This document shows positions 1 through 13,787 of a stretch of DNA of 30,972 bases, in pieces. The first letter of the stretch is position 1, and every line of letters begins with the position of its first letter. Source of the DNA: a virus (Duplodnaviria; Heunggongvirae; Uroviricota; Caudoviricetes); the IMG/VR virus record IMGVR_UViG_2711768059_000015; one strand, written 5' to 3'. The notes below the pieces were generated by a model. The model had not been told where the DNA came from. It saw nothing but the letters and a program-made list of their open reading frames with translations, and ran no database searches. A program made the position numbers and the translations under genes.

Positions 1-1314
1 CTAACTTACTGATTTTAATAGACCTCTTGTGTCACTTTGGTGACTATGGGACATCATTGGGACATAATCTGCCAGCTTCTGATTCAGCATGGCGATCTGT
101 TCTGCATTGCTGTCAGTCATCCATGCTCCGTATACATTGAACACCATCTGGGCACTTGCATGGCCCATCTGGCTGGCAATGAAGCTTGGATTTGCTCCGG
201 CAGATAATGACCAGCACGCATAAGTGTGTCGTGACTGGTATGCCTTTCGATACCTGATGCCAGCACGCTTAATGGCTGTTTCCCATGAGTCGCCAATGGA
301 ATCTACCTTGTAGATAAAACCTACCTGTTTGCTTTTTCTAACCACCTGGGGGTTAAATACGAAAGTACATTCATGATTCACTGAACGTCCATATTCACGT
401 AGTTGCACCTTGATGTGGTGCTGCTTACCCAGTCTTGTCATTTCAGCCTGATTTTTCAGGACACTGATAGCGGGCTGGATAAGATGCACAACCCTGTTTG
501 TACTTGCTTCAGTTTTAGGTAGAGTGAACTCACCGAGTTTCGTATAATTGCGCCTGATAGTAATTGTTCCTGCTTTCAGATCGATATCTTCCCAGGCCAG
601 GGAGACCAGTTCACCATGACGCATTCCTGTGTACACAGCCAATGACCACAGGTTTTTTGTCTGCTGATGCCGGCAAGCATCTATCAGGCGAATAAATTCG
701 TCACGAGTTAGCGGATCTGGCTCTGCCCTGGCTTTTTTAAGAGGCTTAATTCTCTCGAAGGGATTTGCTTCTAAGTAACCGTGATCTGCAGCAAACTGGA
801 ACATTCCAGCGATTGTCGTCATGTAATAATTTACTGTGACAACGCTTCGTCCTTTTACTCGAGCTTTACCTTTTGTTGGATTTTGGTATCCGGTCAGCAA
901 ATCTTTCCTGATATACAGCAATTCCTCTTTGGTCACCGTTGACACCAGTCTGCTACCTCCAATTTTCGGAACCATCGTTCTTGCAACGGATTTATAGCGA
1001 TTGAATGCATTTGCAGAGATTTCCATGCGTTTCAGATCCAGCCACTTTTCTTCAAGTTCTTTCACCGTAATTTCTTTTTTATTTACCCCAAAAGCCTTGA
1101 GGTTAGGAGAGTCAGGGAACTGCGCAGCATAATCAAAGTTTCCTGTACGAATGGCAAAACATACAGATGTCCGCAGCTCTCCGGCGATCTTCCTGTTCTT
1201 GACAGTGTCAGGGACACCAAGATTTTCCCTGACACGTTTACCTTTAAAATTAAACCAGATGCGTAATGTGCCGCCGTGGTTTTCGACGCCTGTTGGATAT
1301 TTGACTTTATCCAT
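1..1314 (-). CDS. int: Phage integrase, tyrosine recombinase family
   Basis: Complete 437-aa ORF with stop at 1-3. GGAGGT RBS 5 nt upstream of the ATG at 1314. C-terminal region has the R..H..R..Y-type catalytic pattern (RHTYA, GHAS, VYGAWM). Sits beside an excisionase-like gene at the prophage end. Confidence 0.9.
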   Translation of the reverse strand: MDKVKYPTGVENHGGTLRIWFNFKGKRVRENLGVPDTVKNRKIAGELRTSVCFAIRTGNFDYAAQFPDSPNLKAFGVNKKEITVKELEEKWLDLKRMEISANAFNRYKSVARTMVPKIGGSRLVSTVTKEELLYIRKDLLTGYQNPTKGKARVKGRSVVTVNYYMTTIAGMFQFAADHGYLEANPFERIKPLKKARAEPDPLTRDEFIRLIDACRHQQTKNLWSLAVYTGMRHGELVSLAWEDIDLKAGTITIRRNYTKLGEFTLPKTEASTNRVVHLIQPAISVLKNQAEMTRLGKQHHIKVQLREYGRSVNHECTFVFNPQVVRKSKQVGFIYKVDSIGDSWETAIKRAGIRYRKAYQSRHTYACWSLSAGANPSFIASQMGHASAQMVFNVYGAWMTDSNAEQIAMLNQKLADYVPMMSHSHQSDTRGLLKSVS

Positions 1315-1369
1315 TGATACCTCCAGACGCCCAAGAGCGATACGAGCTTACATATTTCATGGTATTAAA

Positions 1370-1606
1370 TCACCCAGGTTGTTTGTTTTTCATTGAAGAG
1401 ACCCAGGCATCTATTGCTTTTCTGTTATACATACATTCACTGGAAGGTTTTGGATTACCGTCTGGCGATACGTGAATATACTCTCTTCCTACCATCCAGC
1501 ATTCTTTCCGGGCTCGGAGAATTGTGCCAGGTTTGAGCCCGGTAATTGCGATAAGAACGCTTTCACAAACCCATTCATTGGGAGCCAGTTGAATCACATT
1601 GCCCAT
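1370..1606 (-). CDS. xis: Excisionase-like small DNA-binding protein (recombination directionality factor)
   Basis: 78 aa, directly upstream of int on the same strand. TGAGGT RBS. The EW...R...W..GREY pattern resembles the lambda Xis winged-helix motif. Confidence 0.6.
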   Translation of the reverse strand: MGNVIQLAPNEWVCESVLIAITGLKPGTILRARKECWMVGREYIHVSPDGNPKPSSECMYNRKAIDAWVSSMKNKQPG

Positions 1607-1614
1607 GTATTACC

Positions 1615-1761
1615 TCACACAACACTCAGCCCACGGCAGTGGCACCACACTTCAAACATTCGTTTCACAACTTCACGGCAGTAGAAACCGTCAACATCTC
1701 GCGTCAGGTCATAACGATTGCCGTAACGCTGGCGTACCCATAGCTCAAACGCTTTATTCAT
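1615..1761 (-). CDS. Small hypothetical protein (48 aa, Cys/His-containing)
   Basis: Not in the ORF track (<60 aa). ATG at 1761 preceded by an AAGGAAG RBS; stop at 1615-1617. Tightly packed between xis and the upstream gene (3-nt gap to its stop). Product MNKAFELWVRQRYGNRYDLTRDVDGFYCREVVKRMFEVWCHCRGLSVV. Confidence 0.35.
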   Translation of the reverse strand: MNKAFELWVRQRYGNRYDLTRDVDGFYCREVVKRMFEVWCHCRGLSVV

Positions 1762-1764
1762 TCG

Positions 1765-2007
1765 CTACTTCCTTTTCATGGCTCGTAATTTTTTCAGATG
1801 AGCTTCCTGCTCTGTTTCTGCCAGAATTTGTCGGTATTCCTGGTGATCGATCCGTTCAAACGATTCATTAAAATCGTTCATTTTTACCGATTGTGTTCGC
1901 CCATCCATTCTTCTGTACAACACGGTGTTATTTATGCAGCGAATAATTTTTACCGGGTAACCGGCACTGTCGGTATACAGTTGTCCCTGATTAATCAAAG
2001 CAAACAT
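1765..2007 (-). CDS. Hypothetical protein (80 aa)
   Basis: Internal ATG at 2007 of track ORF 1765-2130, with an AGGAG RBS 6-10 nt upstream. The longer 121-aa version would overlap the upstream gene. No family recognised. Confidence 0.45.
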   Translation of the reverse strand: MFALINQGQLYTDSAGYPVKIIRCINNTVLYRRMDGRTQSVKMNDFNESFERIDHQEYRQILAETEQEAHLKKLRAMKRK

Positions 2008-2038
2008 TTTTTCTCCTGCTCTCTGAATAGTGAGAACT

Positions 2039-2410
2039 TCAGAGCCGTATGTTTGTAGCGGGTTCAATACTGATAATTTCTGCTGAGATAAGCATCCCGG
2101 CAAGCCAGAGTTCTCCGGACAGGTCTTCATCCTGACATATCAGTTCGCCAATATTAATGGTGGCCATGATATCTGTTTCCCCTGTGCGCTCATCCTTGAC
2201 TTCTTCATAAGGCAGCGTTGCGTACAGGCTTTCAATAGCGCAACTGATAACATCCAGTCCGGTCAGATTGCCGCCGACAGTAACTTCGAATGTTTCGCGG
2301 TATTCCCATAGTCCGAAAGTTAATCGAACGGTTTGGTTTGCCATGCGTCCGCATGACGTCAGATTCGGGTCATAGTTCATTATTTGCGGTTGAGTATTCT
2401 GGGTGTTCAT
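2039..2410 (-). CDS. Hypothetical protein (123 aa)
   Basis: Track ORF 2039-2485 trimmed to the ATG at 2410 (MNTQNTQ...), which has an AAGGGA RBS at good spacing and does not overlap the SPFH gene. No family recognised. Confidence 0.5.
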   Translation of the reverse strand: MNTQNTQPQIMNYDPNLTSCGRMANQTVRLTFGLWEYRETFEVTVGGNLTGLDVISCAIESLYATLPYEEVKDERTGETDIMATINIGELICQDEDLSGELWLAGMLISAEIISIEPATNIRL

Positions 2411-2450
2411 CTGCATTTCCCTTAGCCCGGCGGCCTGCCGGGCATATAAG

Positions 2451-3278
2451 TTATTTAATCTGGATAAATGGTGTATTGGCACCACTGGTCATGTATTGCG
2501 GCAGTGTACCGTTCCACTTGTTGATGGCTTCCAGCTCCATGACGCCTGGGTTCTGGCGTAGAGCTTCGCCGCGTAAACGAATGGCATCGGCTTCTGCCTG
2601 GGCTTTTGTTCGAATGGCATCAGCCTGTCCGGCAGCTTCCGCACGTAGCATGTTGGCCTCCGCTTCACGTTGCTTGACTTCCTGCTCGCGCTGCAGGGTT
2701 TTCTGGTTTGCCGTGACTTTGGCGTTAATGCTGTCGATAACGGTTGGAGGGTATTCCGGTTTACCTACATAAGAGAGGCTCATTACCTGAATGCCGATGG
2801 GTGTCATCTCTTCCTGAATGTCTTTAAGTGCGGCATCCAGTAGTTCAGACTTGCCGCCGTCGATAAATTTGTCAGTGGTCATTTTGCTGGCCAGCCGATT
2901 GAGTGCGTCGGCAATTTTCTGGCGCAGGTCAGTGTCGGTAATGTCATCCACGCCTTTGCGGTAGGTCTGAAACACCGTGGTAACTTTGGATGGATCAACT
3001 TTGTAGGCCACACCGATGTGATAGCCGATGGTTGTACCGTCACTCATCTGGAAACTGAACGGTTCATCGTAGGTCTTCATTTGTTTGAAGGTGGGGAAGA
3101 TATAAACTTCAGTATTCCAGCCAGTCCAGTAGCGACCAACACCGACCACCTCACCGACACCTTTGTCGTCGCCTAGTTTATTTACCTTGATGCCAACATT
3201 ACCTGGTTCAACGCGATCGCAACCGACAAGGCCAATAGTCGGCAGAACAATGGCTAAAGCAAAAATAATTTTTTTCAT
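2451..3278 (-). CDS. SPFH/band-7 (prohibitin/HflK-C-like) domain lipoprotein
   Basis: 275 aa. N-terminal signal peptide with lipobox (LVGC). Central band-7 core and a C-terminal Ala/Glu/Arg/Gln-rich coiled coil typical of SPFH proteins. AAGGA RBS. Its start overlaps the upstream small membrane gene's stop (ATGA). Confidence 0.8.
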   Translation of the reverse strand: MKKIIFALAIVLPTIGLVGCDRVEPGNVGIKVNKLGDDKGVGEVVGVGRYWTGWNTEVYIFPTFKQMKTYDEPFSFQMSDGTTIGYHIGVAYKVDPSKVTTVFQTYRKGVDDITDTDLRQKIADALNRLASKMTTDKFIDGGKSELLDAALKDIQEEMTPIGIQVMSLSYVGKPEYPPTVIDSINAKVTANQKTLQREQEVKQREAEANMLRAEAAGQADAIRTKAQAEADAIRLRGEALRQNPGVMELEAINKWNGTLPQYMTSGANTPFIQIK

Positions 3279-3463
3279 CTTTTATCCTTAGTGAAAGAAA
3301 GACCCTTGTAAATGGCATAAATGCAGGGCGGGGTCAGAAACGCCAGTGCAAAGCCAGAAATAACTGCTATCGTATCCTTCATGGATATAAGGAACGGAAC
3401 GAATAATCCGTAAATGCATGCGATAATTGCCAGTAAAATTACTATTTTGAAATACAGTCTCAT
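3275..3463 (-). CDS. Small two-helix membrane protein (62 aa), translationally coupled to the SPFH gene
   Basis: Strongly hydrophobic sequence with two predicted TM helices. Stop overlaps the SPFH start (ATGA). Confidence 0.55.
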   Translation of the reverse strand: MRLYFKIVILLAIIACIYGLFVPFLISMKDTIAVISGFALAFLTPPCIYAIYKGLSFTKDKR

Positions 3464-3486
3464 TGGTCTGTGGTATCCCGATATTT

Positions 3487-3594
3487 TTAACCGACTGACA
3501 GCGCAATAAAGAGAATAATGATTTCAGTTAGTGTCAGCACTGTGGCAAGGATTAAAATCAGTTTTACTCTGTTTAATTCACGGTTGCTTTTCAT
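3487..3594 (-). CDS. Tiny single-TM membrane peptide (35 aa)
   Basis: Not in track. ATG at 3594, stop at 3487-3489. Product MKSNRELNRVKLILILATVLTLTEIIILFIALSVG (charged N-terminus then one hydrophobic helix). Candidate -10 TATAAT lies about 30 nt upstream on the minus strand. Confidence 0.35.
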   Translation of the reverse strand: MKSNRELNRVKLILILATVLTLTEIIILFIALSVG

Positions 3595-3639
3595 ATAAAC
3601 GGTTAGTAAAAAATGGAAGAATTATAGTCTTCTTAATAT

Positions 3640-4221
3640 TTAATGTGTCACTGGCGCTTCTGGCATACCATGAGTATTCAGGTCGTTAATCATTTCATCC
3701 AGAAGGAGTTCAAGCCCTTCGCGCCCCATAGCAGAGAGAATGAAACCATTATCAGGATCTGCGATGAGCATTTTTTGATAGAGAAACAGAACTCGCCCCA
3801 TGCCTTCAGTTTCGCCATATTTTTCAATAAATCCCCATTCGACATGGTTTTGCAGGGCAATGCGAAGTGGTCCTGGGTATATACTCATGCAACCATGTTT
3901 CCCCTTATAAATAACTGCGCGATCTGTCGTCCCGTTATCGTTAGGGATATCAATAGTGCCGTTCTTGTTTTCCTCTTCACTGATAAACGTTGCCACATAC
4001 AGCCAGCGCCATTGAGCAACCTTCATATCGACTGAAAATCTTCCCAGGAATCTGGCATCATCGGCTTCAGCAATACATTGCATGATTCTTAAGCCGTGCC
4101 AGTATGGATTGTCGTATTCACCATCATTAAGTCGCTGTACGGCCTCAACATAATCAATGGTTGTATTGTCAATTTTTATGCCATGAGCTGTCGCTTCTGG
4201 TTTGAATTCAAAATTGTTCAT
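3640..4221 (-). CDS. Hypothetical protein (193 aa), AT-rich accessory gene
   Basis: Track ORF 3640-4296 trimmed to the ATG at 4221 (MNNFEFKPE...) with an AAGGA RBS. Start overlaps the stop of the upstream 62-aa gene (ATGA). No family recognised. Confidence 0.6.
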   Translation of the reverse strand: MNNFEFKPEATAHGIKIDNTTIDYVEAVQRLNDGEYDNPYWHGLRIMQCIAEADDARFLGRFSVDMKVAQWRWLYVATFISEEENKNGTIDIPNDNGTTDRAVIYKGKHGCMSIYPGPLRIALQNHVEWGFIEKYGETEGMGRVLFLYQKMLIADPDNGFILSAMGREGLELLLDEMINDLNTHGMPEAPVTH

Positions 4222-4406
4222 AATGTTTGTTCCTTTGCTGGTGGAATAATCGTGTAACCCGCTCTTTTTGCCATCCACAGAAATGTATCCATGCAACCAA
4301 CGAATTCATTATCCAACAGATGTTTTGAGTAAATTACTTCACCATTTTCAATGGTTAGCAACACTCTTACTTTTTTATGTGTTATGTTCTGTTGTTTTTC
4401 TTTCAT
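4218..4406 (-). CDS. Hypothetical small protein (62 aa), coupled to the downstream 193-aa gene
   Basis: ATG at 4406 with a GGGAGA RBS. Overlapping stop/start with the next gene. Confidence 0.5.
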   Translation of the reverse strand: MKEKQQNITHKKVRVLLTIENGEVIYSKHLLDNEFVGCMDTFLWMAKRAGYTIIPPAKEQTL

Positions 4407-4410
4407 TTAT

Positions 4411-4524
4411 TTATCTCCCATATGCTTTGCGCAAATACAGGTTGGCTATATGAAGATAAGAATCTCCATGTTGTGCAATGAGGCAGGCAGTTTTATACGA
4501 TGCCTTATTTTTCAGGAAAGCCAT
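4411..4524 (-). CDS. Possible small basic protein (37 aa)
   Basis: Not in track. ATG at 4524 with an AGGAG RBS 8 nt upstream; stop at 4411-4413. Product MAFLKNKASYKTACLIAQHGDSYLHIANLYLRKAYGR. Could equally be an untranslated leader. Confidence 0.2.
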   Translation of the reverse strand: MAFLKNKASYKTACLIAQHGDSYLHIANLYLRKAYGR

Positions 4525-4610
4525 AACATAATCTCCTGCGAATAAAGGTTGCAACAATCCCCGGCGATAAAACCGTAATAAACATTCAGTGAATATTTAT
4601 TGTTATTGCG

Positions 4611-4802
4611 CTAATTCTTTTTGACTGCAGCTTTCGAATATTCACATGCAAAAGACAGGATTTCATCACCTAATGTTTTTGCATTCTGATTATTTGACAT
4701 CTGTAAAACTTGCGCAGCGCACAACAGACTATGAATGTTTATTGCAAATGAATCCGATGCCAGACAAATACCTTCGAAATTGTCATGGATATTACTATTC
4801 AC
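4611..4802 (-). CDS. Small protein (63 aa) paralogous to the N-terminal domain of the adjacent HTH protein
   Basis: GTG start at 4802 with AAGGAG RBS, the upstream gene's TAA stop, then a 5-nt spacer. The segment DSFAINIHSLLCAAQVLQ...LGDEILSFACEYS aligns with DSFALNIANLLSAVRTFH...LGIEVMEFIHEYA of the 150-aa neighbour at roughly 40% identity (by eye). Confidence 0.55.
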   Translation of the reverse strand: MNSNIHDNFEGICLASDSFAINIHSLLCAAQVLQMSNNQNAKTLGDEILSFACEYSKAAVKKN

Positions 4803-4807
4803 TGCTG

Positions 4808-5260
4808 TTACTCCTTTGCAGCATTGCTACCAGTCAATAACCACATCGGATCGCAGCCAAGAATATTTGCCAGTGGGATAAGCATACTGATGGTTGGTTC
4901 ATACTCTCCGCTCTCCCACTGGATGATGATTTCTTCATCAAGAGCGAGCAGCCTGGCGAGTTCGGCTGTTGTTAAGCCGCAGGCTTCGCGTTGGGTGCGA
5001 AGGTTAACCAGCCAGCTTTCAGGGAAGGATTGTTTTTGTTGTGCAGGAGAAGCAGCAGATAGAGCATATTCATGGATAAATTCCATTACCTCAATGCCCA
5101 GTTCCTTTGAGCGAGCACAATCCAGAAGATGGAATGTGCGTACAGCACTTAGCAAATTTGCAATATTTAATGCAAAGGAATCAAGTTCTAAGCCCTTAAG
5201 CGTAACACAGCCGCAGTTGATAAAATTAGTTGTTTCTGGAGTTGCTTTTAGTGTCTTCAT
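4808..5260 (-). CDS. Two-domain protein: unrecognised N-terminal domain plus C-terminal XRE-type helix-turn-helix
   Basis: 150 aa. C-terminal LRTQREACGLTTAELARLLALDEEIIIQWESGEYEPTISMLIPLANILGCDP matches the HTH_XRE pattern. First gene downstream of the candidate PL promoter; GGTGGA RBS. Confidence 0.7.
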   Translation of the reverse strand: MKTLKATPETTNFINCGCVTLKGLELDSFALNIANLLSAVRTFHLLDCARSKELGIEVMEFIHEYALSAASPAQQKQSFPESWLVNLRTQREACGLTTAELARLLALDEEIIIQWESGEYEPTISMLIPLANILGCDPMWLLTGSNAAKE

Positions 5261-5290
5261 ATATCCACCAACAATTTTAAATTGAATTAA

Positions 5291-5307
5291 ATCAAGTTAT
5301 AATTGAT
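5291..5307. promoter_or_regulatory. Candidate OL operator (17-bp ATCAA-N7-TTGAT palindrome)
   Basis: ATCAAGTTATAATTGAT matches ATCAAGTTAATATTGGT in the cI-cro intergenic region at 14 of 17 positions. Lies just downstream of the -10 of the candidate PL. Confidence 0.45.
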
Positions 5308-5313
5308 GGTGCG

Positions 5314-5342
5314 ATATTATGCTTTGGGAAATAGGCTGTCAA
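5314..5342 (-). promoter_or_regulatory. Candidate sigma-70 early-left promoter (PL-like)
   Basis: Minus strand reads TTGACA, 17-nt spacer, TAATAT (near-consensus -35 and -10). Located between the cI terminator and the first leftward gene. Confidence 0.5.
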
Positions 5343-5370
5343 GAAAAAATTGATATCGTATATTTCAGGC

Positions 5371-5394
5371 AGAAAAAAACGGGCAAAGCCCGTT
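5371..5394 (-). terminator. Rho-independent terminator downstream of cI
   Basis: Minus strand reads AACGGGC-TTT-GCCCGTT followed by a 7-T run, 12 nt after the cI stop. Confidence 0.55.
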
Positions 5395-5405
5395 AAAATC
5401 AAAGA

Positions 5406-6095
5406 CTAACCAAATCTGTTTATGTTGAATGGTACTGATGAGATCACTTTAGACTGGATATAAAGCAGAGCTAACCCCTCTTTTTCGATGCTCCATGGTT
5501 GATAATTGGGGTTATCAGATAACACCATGATTTTGCTTCCAATTTTTTGAAGCCTTTTCACGTAGCATTCTCCATCAAAACAAAATGCATAAATACCATC
5601 GCCATCAAAATAAGTTACTGTCTTATCAAGAAAAAGAAGGTCGCCAGGTGAGATTGTGGGAGCCATACTGTCTCCTCTGGCGTTACCTATTTCTATATTT
5701 TTGAATGCCCGATTTCCAACAAGACGTCGGGCATATTCAGGATCAAGTTCTATTGAGCGCACTACATCTATCAAGTCACCACGGACATGAGTTCCATCAC
5801 CGCAACTAAACTCAACATCAAGGACATTAAACACGACGCTATCTGTTCTTGTCTGGTGTTTCTCTTGCGAGGAAAAGGTTGGTGAGGAGTCTTCACCTAA
5901 GAACCAGGATTGTGGATAACCGCTAATCTCTGATAAATGCGCGAGCTTATCACTCCGTGGAAATGTTTTTCCTGTTGTCCAGTACTGCACTGATTGCGCA
6001 CTCACACCTAACTTGCGGGCCAGTTGAGCCTGAGTCCATCCTTTTGCTTTCAGCATCGCGGCTATTCGATTTTCCGTGTTTTTGACGTTCTTCAT
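5406..6095 (-). CDS. cI: CI-type prophage repressor (N-terminal XRE HTH, C-terminal S24 LexA-like peptidase domain)
   Basis: 229 aa. N-terminal HTH (GWTQAQLARKLGVSAQSVQYW). C-terminal S24 autocleavage domain with the catalytic Ser in GDSMAPT and a downstream Lys. Divergent from a Cro-like gene. Confidence 0.9.
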   Translation of the reverse strand: MKNVKNTENRIAAMLKAKGWTQAQLARKLGVSAQSVQYWTTGKTFPRSDKLAHLSEISGYPQSWFLGEDSSPTFSSQEKHQTRTDSVVFNVLDVEFSCGDGTHVRGDLIDVVRSIELDPEYARRLVGNRAFKNIEIGNARGDSMAPTISPGDLLFLDKTVTYFDGDGIYAFCFDGECYVKRLQKIGSKIMVLSDNPNYQPWSIEKEGLALLYIQSKVISSVPFNINRFG

Positions 6096-6228
6096 GACCA
6101 GGTCCTGTGGGTTTCTTTACAAGGATAAATCTTTACTTGATTTTAGTGTATTCGATCCTTTTGCAACTTGCATGTTAATTTAATCTTGATATATTCTTGT
6201 GTTATCAAGTTAATATTGGTGTTTTGCT
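6096..6228. promoter_or_regulatory. Divergent cI-cro promoter/operator region (PRM/PR with OR sites)
   Basis: 133-bp AT-rich intergenic region between divergent repressor genes. Candidate PR is TTGATA (6186-6191), spacer, TAATAT (6211-6216). Palindromic elements include CTTGATA-N11-TATCAAG (6185-6209) and the operator-like 17-mer at 6204-6220 overlapping the -10. Confidence 0.6.
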
Positions 6229-6528
6229 ATGAAAGGAAATGATTACGACGTACTTCGCGCATTAATTGCGCAAAATGCCATTGCACGAAACCTTGGTGTA
6301 ACTCCGCAAGCGGTGAATCAGTGGTTTTCAAAAAACACAATTCCTGCTCGTTTTGTTTTACGCGTATGTGAAGTAGTTGCATGGAAGGTCACGCCACATG
6401 GCTTAAGGCCAGATCTTTATCCTCACCCTGAAGATGGAATTCCTGATTCGTTACGCAAAATTTCAAATCCAAGCCTAGCGCGCACGGAAGATGGGCAGAG
6501 TGATTCATCAGAAATGTCCACGCGATGA
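6229..6528 (+). CDS. cro: Cro-like repressor (YdaS/Cro HTH family)
   Basis: 99 aa, divergent from cI. N-terminal HTH (LGVTPQAVNQWFS) typical of the YdaS/Cro-type family. Confidence 0.75.
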   Translation: MKGNDYDVLRALIAQNAIARNLGVTPQAVNQWFSKNTIPARFVLRVCEVVAWKVTPHGLRPDLYPHPEDGIPDSLRKISNPSLARTEDGQSDSSEMSTR

Positions 6529-6604
6529 ACGGTTACTGAACGAAAAAAGAAAAGCCGGGCCGCACTCCGTCAGCCCGACTTATTCTGATTAGTAAGGGGA
6601 TTTC

Positions 6605-7459
6605 ATGATGATCAATAAACAAAAAATAGTCAACCCTGAAAACTTGCCAGTTATTGAGTGGCAGGGAGTACGTGTAGTTACCACCGAAACGTTGGCGGCG
6701 GGATATGGAACAACGCCAATCCGTATACAACAGAACTACATTCGAAACGAAGATCGTTTCGTTGAGGGTAAACACTTTTTCAAAATCAGCGGTGATGAGC
6801 TGAAATCTTTCCGACTATCTTTTAGCGAGTCGGTTAATAAACATACAACATCACTTGTCCTCTGGACAGAACGCGGCGCTGCCCGCATGTCAAAAATCGT
6901 CGATACAGACGAGGCCTGGTCGTTCTTCGAAAAAATGGAGCAGGCGTATTTTCGTAAAGCAACGCCTTCTTCAAACACTATTCCAGACTTTGACGATCCG
7001 ATCGCTGCTGCTGAAGCGTGGATTGAAGCCAAAAAATCCGAACGCCTTGCTCTCGGGTATGCAGAGCGTCAGGCTCGCTACATCAGCAAACTCGAAAGCC
7101 ATCTCGCCGATGGCATCACTCCTGTGCAGTTCTGCAAACAACTCAACGGTGTAAACACTCGTCAGATTAATGCGTTCCTTGAAGAGCGTAACTGGCTGTA
7201 TGACGACCGTCCGGAGGCTATGTATCCGCGCTGGCGTGTAAAAGCGTATGCACGTGACCAATACCTGACTGAGCGTTCTGGGCAGGTTGAGCAGGAAAAC
7301 GGGGAAATGCGCGAGATTTTCAAACCACTCCTGAAGAAAAAAGGTGCCGCCTGGTTATATCGCCATTATCTGAACGGTGAACTACCGATGAAGAAAACAT
7401 GGGATGGGCTGTTTACCCATAACACTGAGCTCGCGAATCTTTTACAGGAGAACAAATAA
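6605..7459 (+). CDS. Antirepressor-like protein (N-terminal ORF6N domain, C-terminal KilA-C/Ant domain)
   Basis: 284 aa with AAGGGGA RBS. N-terminal region carries the ORF6N-type LWTERGA motif; the C-terminal half resembles the phage antirepressor Ant/KilAC domain. Confidence 0.75.
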   Translation: MMINKQKIVNPENLPVIEWQGVRVVTTETLAAGYGTTPIRIQQNYIRNEDRFVEGKHFFKISGDELKSFRLSFSESVNKHTTSLVLWTERGAARMSKIVDTDEAWSFFEKMEQAYFRKATPSSNTIPDFDDPIAAAEAWIEAKKSERLALGYAERQARYISKLESHLADGITPVQFCKQLNGVNTRQINAFLEERNWLYDDRPEAMYPRWRVKAYARDQYLTERSGQVEQENGEMREIFKPLLKKKGAAWLYRHYLNGELPMKKTWDGLFTHNTELANLLQENK

Positions 7460-7668
7460 TGCAAACCAAGACGTGTGTAACTGGTGATGTCGATCTGAAA
7501 CCTTGCCCGTTCTGCGGAAATCCGGAAGTACAACTCATTGAGGTGAAATATTTTCTGGATGGCGATGATGGTTATTACGTCGCATGTACTTGCTGTAACG
7601 CAAACCAGATCCCTGATTCGAAAGAACGTGCTGTTCATGACTGGAATCAGCGCGAAAACGCGGATTGA
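7459..7668 (+). CDS. lar: Lar-family restriction alleviation protein
   Basis: 69 aa with CPFCG and CTCC cysteine pairs characteristic of Lar-family zinc-ribbon proteins. Start overlaps the upstream stop (TAATG). Confidence 0.7.
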   Translation: MQTKTCVTGDVDLKPCPFCGNPEVQLIEVKYFLDGDDGYYVACTCCNANQIPDSKERAVHDWNQRENAD

Positions 7669-12278: not shown

Positions 12279-12649
12279 TGCGCTTAGAGTGTGTTTTACC
12301 TTACCCACCGACGGTGAACACCTACTGGCGTCGTCGTGGCAGCACATATTTTGTATCAAAAGCAGGGGAGCGTTATCGCCGGGATGTGGCGCTTATTGTT
12401 CGCCAGCAGCGACTGAAATTAAACCTGTCCGGAAGGCTGGCAATAAAAATTATTGCAGAGCCGCCGGATAAGCGCCGTCGTGACCTGGACAATATTCTGA
12501 AAGCACCACTGGATGCGCTGACGCATGCCGGACTACTTATAGACGACGAGCAGTTTGATGAAATCAATATTGTGCGCGGACTGCCTGTTCCTGGTGGGCG
12601 GTTGGGCGTGAAGATTTACGAAATTACAGGTGATAACGATGGTGCGTGA
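12278..12649 (+). CDS. rusA: RusA-family Holliday junction resolvase
   Basis: PPTVNTYW and RRRDLDN motifs typical of RusA. ATG at 12278 overlaps the previous stop. Confidence 0.85.
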
Positions 12650-13025
12650 TATTCAGCAGGTTATGGAGCGGTGGGGATCATGGGCTGCGAACAATCACGA
12701 AGATGTGTCATGGGCGTCAATCGCTGCTGGTTTTAAAGGATTAATCCCGCCGAAAGTGAAATCACGCCCTCAGTGTTCTGATGATGATGCAATGATAATT
12801 TGTGGCTGTATGGCCCGGTTGAACAAGAAAAATCAGGATTTGCACGATTTGTTGGTGGATTATTACGTAGGTGGAATGACTTTTATGGGGTTGGCACGAA
12901 AGCATGGGTGTTCGGATACCTGTATTGGCAAGCGCCTGCAGAAAGCGGAAGGGGTTATTGATGGCATGTTGATGATGCTTGATATCCGACTAGAGATGGA
13001 CAGATACGTAGAACGAATCATGTAG
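12639..13025 (+). CDS. Q: Late gene antiterminator Q-like protein
   Basis: About 128 aa, Cys-rich (CSDDD...ICGC...C..C). Canonical position before a promoter plus terminator pair and the late genes. ATG at 12639 with AGGTGA RBS. Confidence 0.65.
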
Positions 13026-13029
13026 GAGC

Positions 13030-13059
13030 TTGACCAGACACATTGTCCGGGGCTATATT
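13030..13059 (+). promoter_or_regulatory. Candidate late promoter PR' (Q utilisation region follows)
   Basis: TTGACC, 18-nt spacer, TATATT, immediately after Q. Downstream hairpin CGCCAG-N6-CTGGCG (13066-13083) could be part of a qut-like site. Confidence 0.45.
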
Positions 13060-13120
13060 CCTCACGCGCCAGCAAAATCTGGCGTCGGGATTGGCGTCCC
13101 GGATGAAAAAGGCGACAACA

Positions 13121-13140
13121 GACGCGCCAGCGTCTTTTTT
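13121..13140 (+). terminator. Rho-independent terminator (tR'-like) downstream of PR'
   Basis: GACGC-GCCA-GCGTC hairpin followed by TTTTTT. Predicts a short leader RNA of about 75 nt from PR'. Confidence 0.5.
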
Positions 13141-13298: not shown

Positions 13299-13787
13299 AT
13301 GGCTATTCAAATCTCAGTTGAAACTCTTTCCCCGATCACCCATAACCAAATCCCTGTCATTACTACCGAGCTTTTGGCACAACTTTATGGCACCGAAACT
13401 AATAACATCAAAGTGAACTATACACGCAATGCCGAGCGTTTTGTTTGTGGGAAACACTACTTCAAATTGGAAGGGGCTGAGTTGCGGGAATTTAAGAACA
13501 AGGTTACTCAAAGTAACTTAGTTGCACCGCGTACAAAGCACCTCATCCTCTGGACAGAACGCGGAGCAGTCCGTCACGCCAAAATGCTGGAAACCGATCA
13601 GGCGTGGGAAGTGTTCGAAAAACTGGAAGACTGTTATTTCAGCCAAAAACAACCACCAGCAGCACAAAACACCCCAACCCAAAATGATGGATGCGCATTA
13701 CTGATCCACTTCGATAAACACGGTCAGGTCGACTTCACGGAAAAACTACCCGCCGATGCGATGGTATGCACTCTGGAACGGTTTTAA
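13299..13787 (+). CDS. ORF6N-domain protein (antirepressor N-terminal domain only)
   Basis: 162 aa. Paralogous to the N-terminus of the 6605-7459 protein (shared NY.RN.ERFV.GKH.FK and LILWTERGA motifs). AAAGGA RBS. Confidence 0.7.
   Translation: MAIQISVETLSPITHNQIPVITTELLAQLYGTETNNIKVNYTRNAERFVCGKHYFKLEGAELREFKNKVTQSNLVAPRTKHLILWTERGAVRHAKMLETDQAWEVFEKLEDCYFSQKQPPAAQNTPTQNDGCALLIHFDKHGQVDFTEKLPADAMVCTLERF

Follow-up and report, generated by a model that had tools for sequence, protein, structure and literature searches.

A probable PL/OL-type left control region in the immunity cassette of a lambda-like Escherichia coli prophage

The layout of the left control region of phage lambda is well established: the leftward early promoter PL lies downstream of the repressor operon, the terminator t_imm stands just before it, and three pseudo-palindromic operators of about 17 bp (OL1–OL3), related to those of OR, lie over the promoter. 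An N-type antiterminator with nutL is the first leftward gene in lambda, P22, 21 and 933W, and HK022 is a lambdoid phage without N. In the Shiga-toxin phage 933W, OL/PL is reported, in the 2004 work of Tyler, Mills and Friedman, to follow directly after cI with no rex genes between, the number of OL sites departing from the three of lambda. In CP-933P, which encodes PaaR2, YdaS and YdaT, the palindromic operators of the divergent intergenic region serve both the repressor and Cro, and a PL/OL analogue beyond the repressor operon is regulated by both proteins (PMC8630535). A published classification of Stx-phage CI repressors defined their clades, but not their operators (PMC8951638).

The stretch of DNA analysed here (the window; 30,972 bp, IMG/VR record IMGVR_UViG_2711768059_000015) is a lambda-like E. 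coli prophage integrated next to mlrA. E. coli UTAK-5 is 100% identical to window bases 4800–6530, its element adjoins mlrA, and the gene order there is int, xis, left arm, HTH gene, cI, cro and then replication genes. The segment 5261–5405 is very probably the left control region of its immunity cassette, of the PL/OL type and composed of a cI terminator, a PL-type promoter and CI operators that would close this promoter in a lysogen. It resembles lambda in having a leftward early promoter downstream of the repressor operon with a terminator just before it, multiple pseudo-palindromic sites of about 17 bp, related to those between cI and cro, over the promoter, and a LexA-like S24 HTH protein as repressor. 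It is unlike lambda in that no rexA or rexB stands between cI and the terminator, in its operator sequence (ATCAAGTTnAACTTGAT), in the position of the operators (one across the -35, another across +1 to +17, whereas those of lambda are adjacent and lie over the -10 and -35), in its first leftward gene, which encodes an HTH protein where lambda has N, and in the distance between OL and OR (about 0.9 kb, 2.3 kb in lambda). As in 933W, a lambdoid E. coli phage carries cI and then directly OL/PL, without rex genes, yet the CI clade and the operator sequence are different, and PL of 933W drives N. With CP-933P the prophage has in common a Cro-type protein of the YdaS family; there, however, the repressor PaaR2 is without similarity to lambda CI, is followed by a toxin-antitoxin pair and is associated with the operator repeats GTTTAGTAA, whereas the repressor here is a classical S24 protein with the terminator and promoter immediately after it. 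The half-site core CAAG...CTTG resembles ACAAG...TTGT of 434 and TAAG...CTTA of P22, which serves as a lead only, and the operators are unlike those of P22 c2 and 434 cI in length and spacing.

For comparison we searched IMG/VR with the CI protein, which gave 80 loci, and the comparison set consisted of these 80 viral contigs and four phages. By identity their CI proteins fall into four clades: a window-type (98–100%), a Stx2-type (93–94%), a phi467-type (88%) and a distant clade (loci L078–L086, 79–80%). Column conservation was computed on 72 loci, representing 48 distinct sequences, from the three clades with the HTH gene. Among 5,426 complete E. coli genomes, at least 136 contain ≥80% of the 1.7-kb cassette; it is present at 97% identity in phage PhiR49_2, where cI is annotated, and at about 78–80% identity in a set of Stx2a/Stx2d-converting phages and in phage phi467. 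A variant form of this CI immunity type occurs in Stx2a and Stx2d-converting phages of O145:H28. A full-text literature search for the half-site words returned unrelated papers only, literature searches on PhiR49_2/ECOR13 and on phiP27 likewise yielded nothing about the switch, and in the limited literature that was searchable we found no description of this operator set.

The repressor gene cI (229 aa, 5406..6095, minus strand) belongs to the transcriptional repressors of phrog_4 (E = 9e-54), and its product contains an HTH_3 domain (aa 11–52, 4.9e-8) and a Peptidase_S24 domain (aa 139–206, 4e-17), both of which pass the Pfam cut-offs. The GDSM and KR motifs are unchanged in six relatives; the S24 domain is that of the LexA/CI-type self-cleaving repressors, and cleavage is predicted. 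A PDB sequence search with CI gave no solved relative of the N-terminal domain at E ≤ 0.001, returning UmuD only, by way of the S24 domain, so there is no structure of the DNA-binding domain from which an operator could be deduced.

The initial annotation had placed a terminator of the cI transcript on the minus strand at 5371–5394, and a hairpin with a T-run is present at exactly this position, starting 11 nt past the cI stop codon (5408..5406). The 7-bp stem (AACGGGC/GCCCGTT, five of seven pairs G-C) and the 3-nt loop TTT span 5394..5378 and are followed by T7 (5377..5371). The hairpin RNA folds at -11.9 kcal/mol (z = -2.6), and a stem, loop and U7 of this kind make up a Rho-independent terminator, so that we read 5371–5394 as a real intrinsic-terminator sequence, at which most cI transcripts would end. 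The window-type clade keeps this terminator, and the distant clade keeps the hairpin with a weaker T-run. In the Stx2-type and phi467-type clades (CI 88–94% identical) we found neither the hairpin nor a substitute hairpin, which means that the design does not depend on it; in these clades it may be dispensable, or read-through may be handled in some other way. Relatives that are otherwise nearly identical (loci L007–L053) differ in the length of their T-run, from T6 to T10. From the cI stop codon to the -35 of the promoter beyond there are only 63 bp, which leaves no space for a gene and agrees with the earlier expectation that nothing like rexAB would be found between cI and PL.

The promoter itself, proposed previously at 5314–5342, consists of a -35 TTGACA (5337..5342), a 17-nt spacer and a -10 TAATAT (5314..5319) on the minus strand, with a sigma-70 score of 10/12. 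It lies 3' of cI (stop 5406) and is directed away from it (5342..5314) into the recombination and integration arm. Its near-consensus hexamers are kept while the spacer is variable: the -35 is invariant in all relatives with the HTH gene, and among the 48 distinct sequences five of the six -10 columns are invariant but only 2/17 in the spacer, with 2/16 in the stretch between terminator and promoter and 1/9 in the ribosome-site region. With the -10 ending at 5314, leftward transcription is predicted to start near A5307.

Only three sites in the window, on both strands, reach 10/12 matches to the sigma-70 consensus. One is TTGACC-18-TATATT (13030–13059, plus strand), located 5 nt past the gene for a Q antiterminator (12630–13025; PF06530, 5.6e-52) and followed about 60 nt beyond by an intrinsic terminator (13120–13135, plus strand), which together read as a PR'/tR'-type late promoter arrangement. 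As one of the other two 10/12 sites therefore occupies the PR' position, the simple scan picks out canonical lambdoid promoter positions here. The remaining one is TTTAAA-16-TATAAT (5276–5303, plus strand), antisense to the 3' end of cI and an opposite-strand shadow of the PL candidate inside the same AT-rich DNA. It was rejected as a promoter, because it is not kept across the clades: Stx2-type relatives do not retain its -35, and the operator centre that holds its -10 differs in the distant clade. It is probably a shadow cast by AT-rich operator DNA.

The leader downstream of the predicted start gave no indication of an RNA element. An Rfam search of 3500–7500 at E ≤ 1 produced only a spurious snoRNA match (E = 0.77), hence no known RNA family, and the fold of the 5' leader (5308..5255, z = -0.9) shows no sign of a structured RNA.

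Three operator-like sites lie on and around this promoter. The best copy, ATCAAGTTATAATTGAT at 5291–5307, has two mismatches to the consensus and covers about +1 to +17. It is the 17-bp palindrome described in the initial annotation, although imperfect (6/8 symmetric pairs), and 12 of its 17 columns are invariant in the 48 distinct sequences. The resemblance to 6204–6220 in the cI-cro region that had been pointed out also holds, with 14 of 17 positions matching; nothing else in the window comes within 3 mismatches of 5291–5307, and the chance expectation is 0.07 hits. In treating 5291–5307 as an operator-like site the initial annotation was correct, but it described this one alone and missed 5338–5354 and the weaker 5270–5286. 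The former, GTCAAGAAAAAATTGAT, overlaps the -35 with four mismatches to ATCAAGTTnAACTTGAT, has 13/17 invariant columns and spans about -31 to -47, so that the -10 and most of the spacer are uncovered. The latter, AACAATTTTAAATTGAA, lies in the 5' leader with four mismatches and 12/17 invariant columns, its centre 21 bp from that of 5291–5307, and in the phi467-type it takes the form GTTAATTTTAAATTGAT, which is close to the right-hand site at 6174–6190. The distant clade has no counterpart of 5270–5286, which makes it the least certain of the three; it is a probable third left operator, in which case OL, like OR, would probably have three sites. The left region thus holds at least two copies of a motif which has its consensus in common with the cI-cro sites and overlaps promoter elements. 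A further operator-like sequence, ATCACTTTAGACTGGAT (four mismatches), is found at 5443–5459 within the 3'-terminal part of cI, at a distance of 37 bp from its stop codon, and may be there by chance.

The consensus ATCAAGTTnAACTTGAT was taken from the distant clade and not from the window. In this clade the flanks are unalignable and the first leftward gene is unrelated (phrog_2583), yet cI is followed, in order, by a hairpin, ATCAAGTTTAACTTGAC over a -35 TTGACG, 17 nt, a weak -10 TAACCT, 6 nt and the perfect palindrome ATCAAGTTTAACTTGAT. Two near-identical copies of ATCAAGTTTAACTTGA(T/C) are therefore present, the first across the -35 and the second 6 nt beyond the -10. The CI recognition helix SAQSVQYWTTGKTFPR is identical in this clade despite a CI identity of 79–80%, and the HTH segment GWSQAELARxLGVSAQSVQYWTTGKTFPR is essentially invariant across all four clades, so the clades should share one DNA specificity. 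A scan of the whole window for further copies of the motif, a check the initial annotation had suggested, gave eight sites with ≤4/16 mismatches, six of them within the two intergenic regions (278 bp in total; three left, three right). First-order Markov simulations of both regions gave an expectation of 0.03 sites, with 0/3000 runs reaching six, although four of the six sites carry 4/16 mismatches and, with a consensus drawn from members of one family, the test of clustering is not fully independent. The centres of the left sites are 21 and 47 bp apart and those of the right sites 30 and 49 bp, unlike the 23–24 bp of lambda, so lambda-style pairwise cooperativity cannot be assumed.

These comparisons bear on whether the hexamers and the palindrome are simply a by-product of AT-rich intergenic DNA, without any regulatory role. 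The region is indeed AT-rich, the opposite-strand 10/12 match at 5276–5303 falls in the same stretch, and at the lower threshold of 9/12 promoter-like sites in 4300–7000 are no commoner than in shuffled sequence (4 found, 6.6 expected). We nevertheless regard such an origin as extremely improbable, given six observed operator sites against 0.03 under the composition-matched null, a block-wise conservation that coincides with the elements, and the recurrence of these elements in an otherwise unalignable distant clade.

Between cI and cro, the site nearest cI (ATAAATCTTTACTTGAT, 6125–6141) overlaps a conserved TAAAAT (6145..6140), the middle site (GTTAATTTAATCTTGAT, 6174–6190) lies between the candidate PR -35 TTGCAT and its -10, and the site nearest cro is ATCAAGTTAATATTGGT (6204–6220). 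The earlier proposal that 6204–6220 overlaps the PR -10 is doubtful: the TAATAT at 6211–6216 is lost in locus L085 and is preceded only by a -35 at a spacing of 19 nt, and if used as a -10 it would start transcripts about 6 nt before the cro ATG, past a conserved GGTG ribosome site. Among the rightward candidates, TTGCAT (6168–6173) followed after 16–18 nt by TATATT/TATTCT (6190–6197) is alone in being retained by all six clade representatives. It is more likely that 6204–6220 covers the PR start (about +1), mirroring the arrangement at PL, than that it covers the -10. In many relatives, however, the crucial second base of the -10 in the 16-nt register is G, so that TTGCAT and its -10 are a tentative PR. 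On the cI strand, TAAAAT (6145..6140) is kept in all clades with a variable -35, and is a plausible, and the best, candidate for the -10 of PRM.

The cro-type gene (99 aa, 6229..6528, plus strand) encodes a protein of the Pfam families YdaS_toxin/P22_Cro, and experimental work on the YdaS family has demonstrated that its members are analogues of Cro, not toxins (PMC8630535). As a YdaS-type Cro binds the same intergenic operators as its partner repressor (PMC8630535), the sites could in principle be used mainly or solely by Cro, with CI repressing the left arm by an indirect route or at other sequences. Like the helix of CI, that of Cro (TPQAVNQWF) is kept between the clades, which would suit this reading, but wherever the motif persists the CI helix does not vary, and silencing of the xis/int arm in a lysogen requires CI. 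To our knowledge, moreover, CI and Cro share operators in every lambdoid switch that has been studied (lambda, 434, P22), and exclusive or predominant use by Cro appears very unlikely, leaving CI as the expected ligand of both operator groups. Co-transfer of cI and cro as one unit is documented in lambdoid phages (PMC9836094).

Two further features were seen on this side of the switch. Directly past the cro stop codon there is a GC-rich 11-bp hairpin (6552–6581), which scores as a terminator of leftward transcripts (tail TTCTTTTTTC) and has a poor tail on the cro strand; it may be a counterpart of tR1 or may serve to block antisense transcription. The window also encodes two ORF6N-domain (antirepressor-type) genes on the plus strand, one directly after cro (6605–7459), in the position of lambda cII, and one after the late promoter (13299–13787).

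Leftward transcription from the PL candidate first meets the gene for a 150-aa HTH protein (4808..5260, minus strand), with its ATG at 5260 and a ribosome site GGTG(GA) at 5269..5264. Its designation as the first gene of the leftward operon is borne out, as the start in RefSeq is identical and every annotated gene from 5260 to int is leftward. A scan of the leftward strand over 1–5300 found no other strong promoter and no terminator-like site, and a single leftward promoter with no leftward terminator up to int fits a single left operon. None of the left-arm ORFs matched N, and the operon begins with an HTH_3 protein where an N-type antiterminator would stand; since N as the first gene is not universal among lambdoid phages, this marks a variant of the arrangement and does not exclude the locus from it.

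The 150-aa protein combines a cassette-specific N-terminal domain with a C-terminal HTH_3 domain (aa 87–141). It falls in phrog_4836, labelled 'CII-like regulator' in PHROGs, a label with no functional evidence behind it; PADLOC and NCBIfam searches with the protein returned only generic HTH matches below cut-off, and its HTH domain matches the structures of the P22 C2 and 434 repressors at E = 1e-4 to 8e-3. A prophage of ST131 with an unrelated cI and operators carries the same HTH domain (aa 87–144, 97% identical), and there too cI, a promoter and the HTH gene follow each other, with the prophage's own motif common to the left and right intergenic regions.

That the protein has a DNA-binding HTH_3 domain, and that palindromes are present in the leader of its own gene, raises the alternative that the palindrome is an autoregulatory operator of this protein and not a CI site, the promoter being private to a moron expressed in the lysogen. 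An upstream terminator and a private promoter are indeed typical of morons. Against this, three copies of the operator motif lie between cI and cro, it stands at equal promoter-relative positions in the distant clade, which lacks the 150-aa HTH gene, and in the ST131 prophage, with its 97% identical HTH domain, all these palindromes are missing upstream of the gene. We therefore hold a moron with its own operator to be highly improbable and retain the reading as a PL/OL-type region under CI. Autoregulation of the HTH gene through one particular palindrome, CAATTT-T-AAATTG (5272–5284), was considered separately and rejected, as no such palindrome exists in the ST131 prophage.

The same gene marks the edge of the cassette. 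The N-terminal domain of its product differs from one immunity type to another, in more than 190 E. coli genomes the HTH-coding part is all that is shared with the cassette, and the mosaic joint at about 5002/5003 coincides with the domain boundary of the protein. As the cassette ends at this boundary, the N-terminal domain (aa 1–86) travels with the CI type, either as part of a functional unit or as a mere hitch-hiker. The immunity cassette might on this account extend beyond cI, cro and the operators, with the 150-aa protein acting as an N-independent early regulator, its variable domain communicating with the cognate CI/Cro switch and its constant HTH domain binding a target that all these phages share; this is a speculative idea that we consider unlikely. 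Downstream, a 63-aa ORF at 4611–4802 (minus strand), unannotated in RefSeq, matches phrog_4587 (E = 1.7e-29) and is paralogous to aa 24–69 of the 150-aa protein (39% identity, E = 1e-8). The Stx2-type homologue of the first leftward gene (locus L002, 2722–3450; Stx2_14040 and relatives) is a tandem two-HTH protein. Its GenBank TTG start (L002:3450) lies inside the operator, with the homologous ATG 36 nt downstream, and the annotated start is therefore probably too far upstream.

Directly established are the elements in the sequence, the way they are conserved, and the fact that they accompany one CI recognition helix; from these we infer the binding of CI, the start point, the order of occupancy and the efficiency of the terminator. 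In a lysogen, leftward cI transcripts would mostly end at the hairpin and T7, and TTGACA-17-TAATAT would read left into the HTH gene and on through the left arm to xis and int. CI dimers would recognise the ATCAAGTTnAACTTGAT-type sites at 5338–5354 over the -35, at 5291–5307 over the start and perhaps at 5270–5286, and this occupancy would shut the promoter by steric exclusion of RNA polymerase; between cI and cro, CI would likewise be bound at three related sites. On SOS induction CI would cleave itself by way of the S24 domain and so free the promoter, after which Cro would probably act at the CI sites.

This is standard occlusion of an early promoter by a repressor, and the understanding of the lambdoid switch is unchanged by it. 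What the analysis yields is an operator consensus, ATCAAGTTnAACTTGAT, and a map of six sites for one CI immunity type, and such a map permits the prediction of cross-immunity between prophages, the design of reporter and induction assays, and a better annotation of the start codon of the neighbouring gene.
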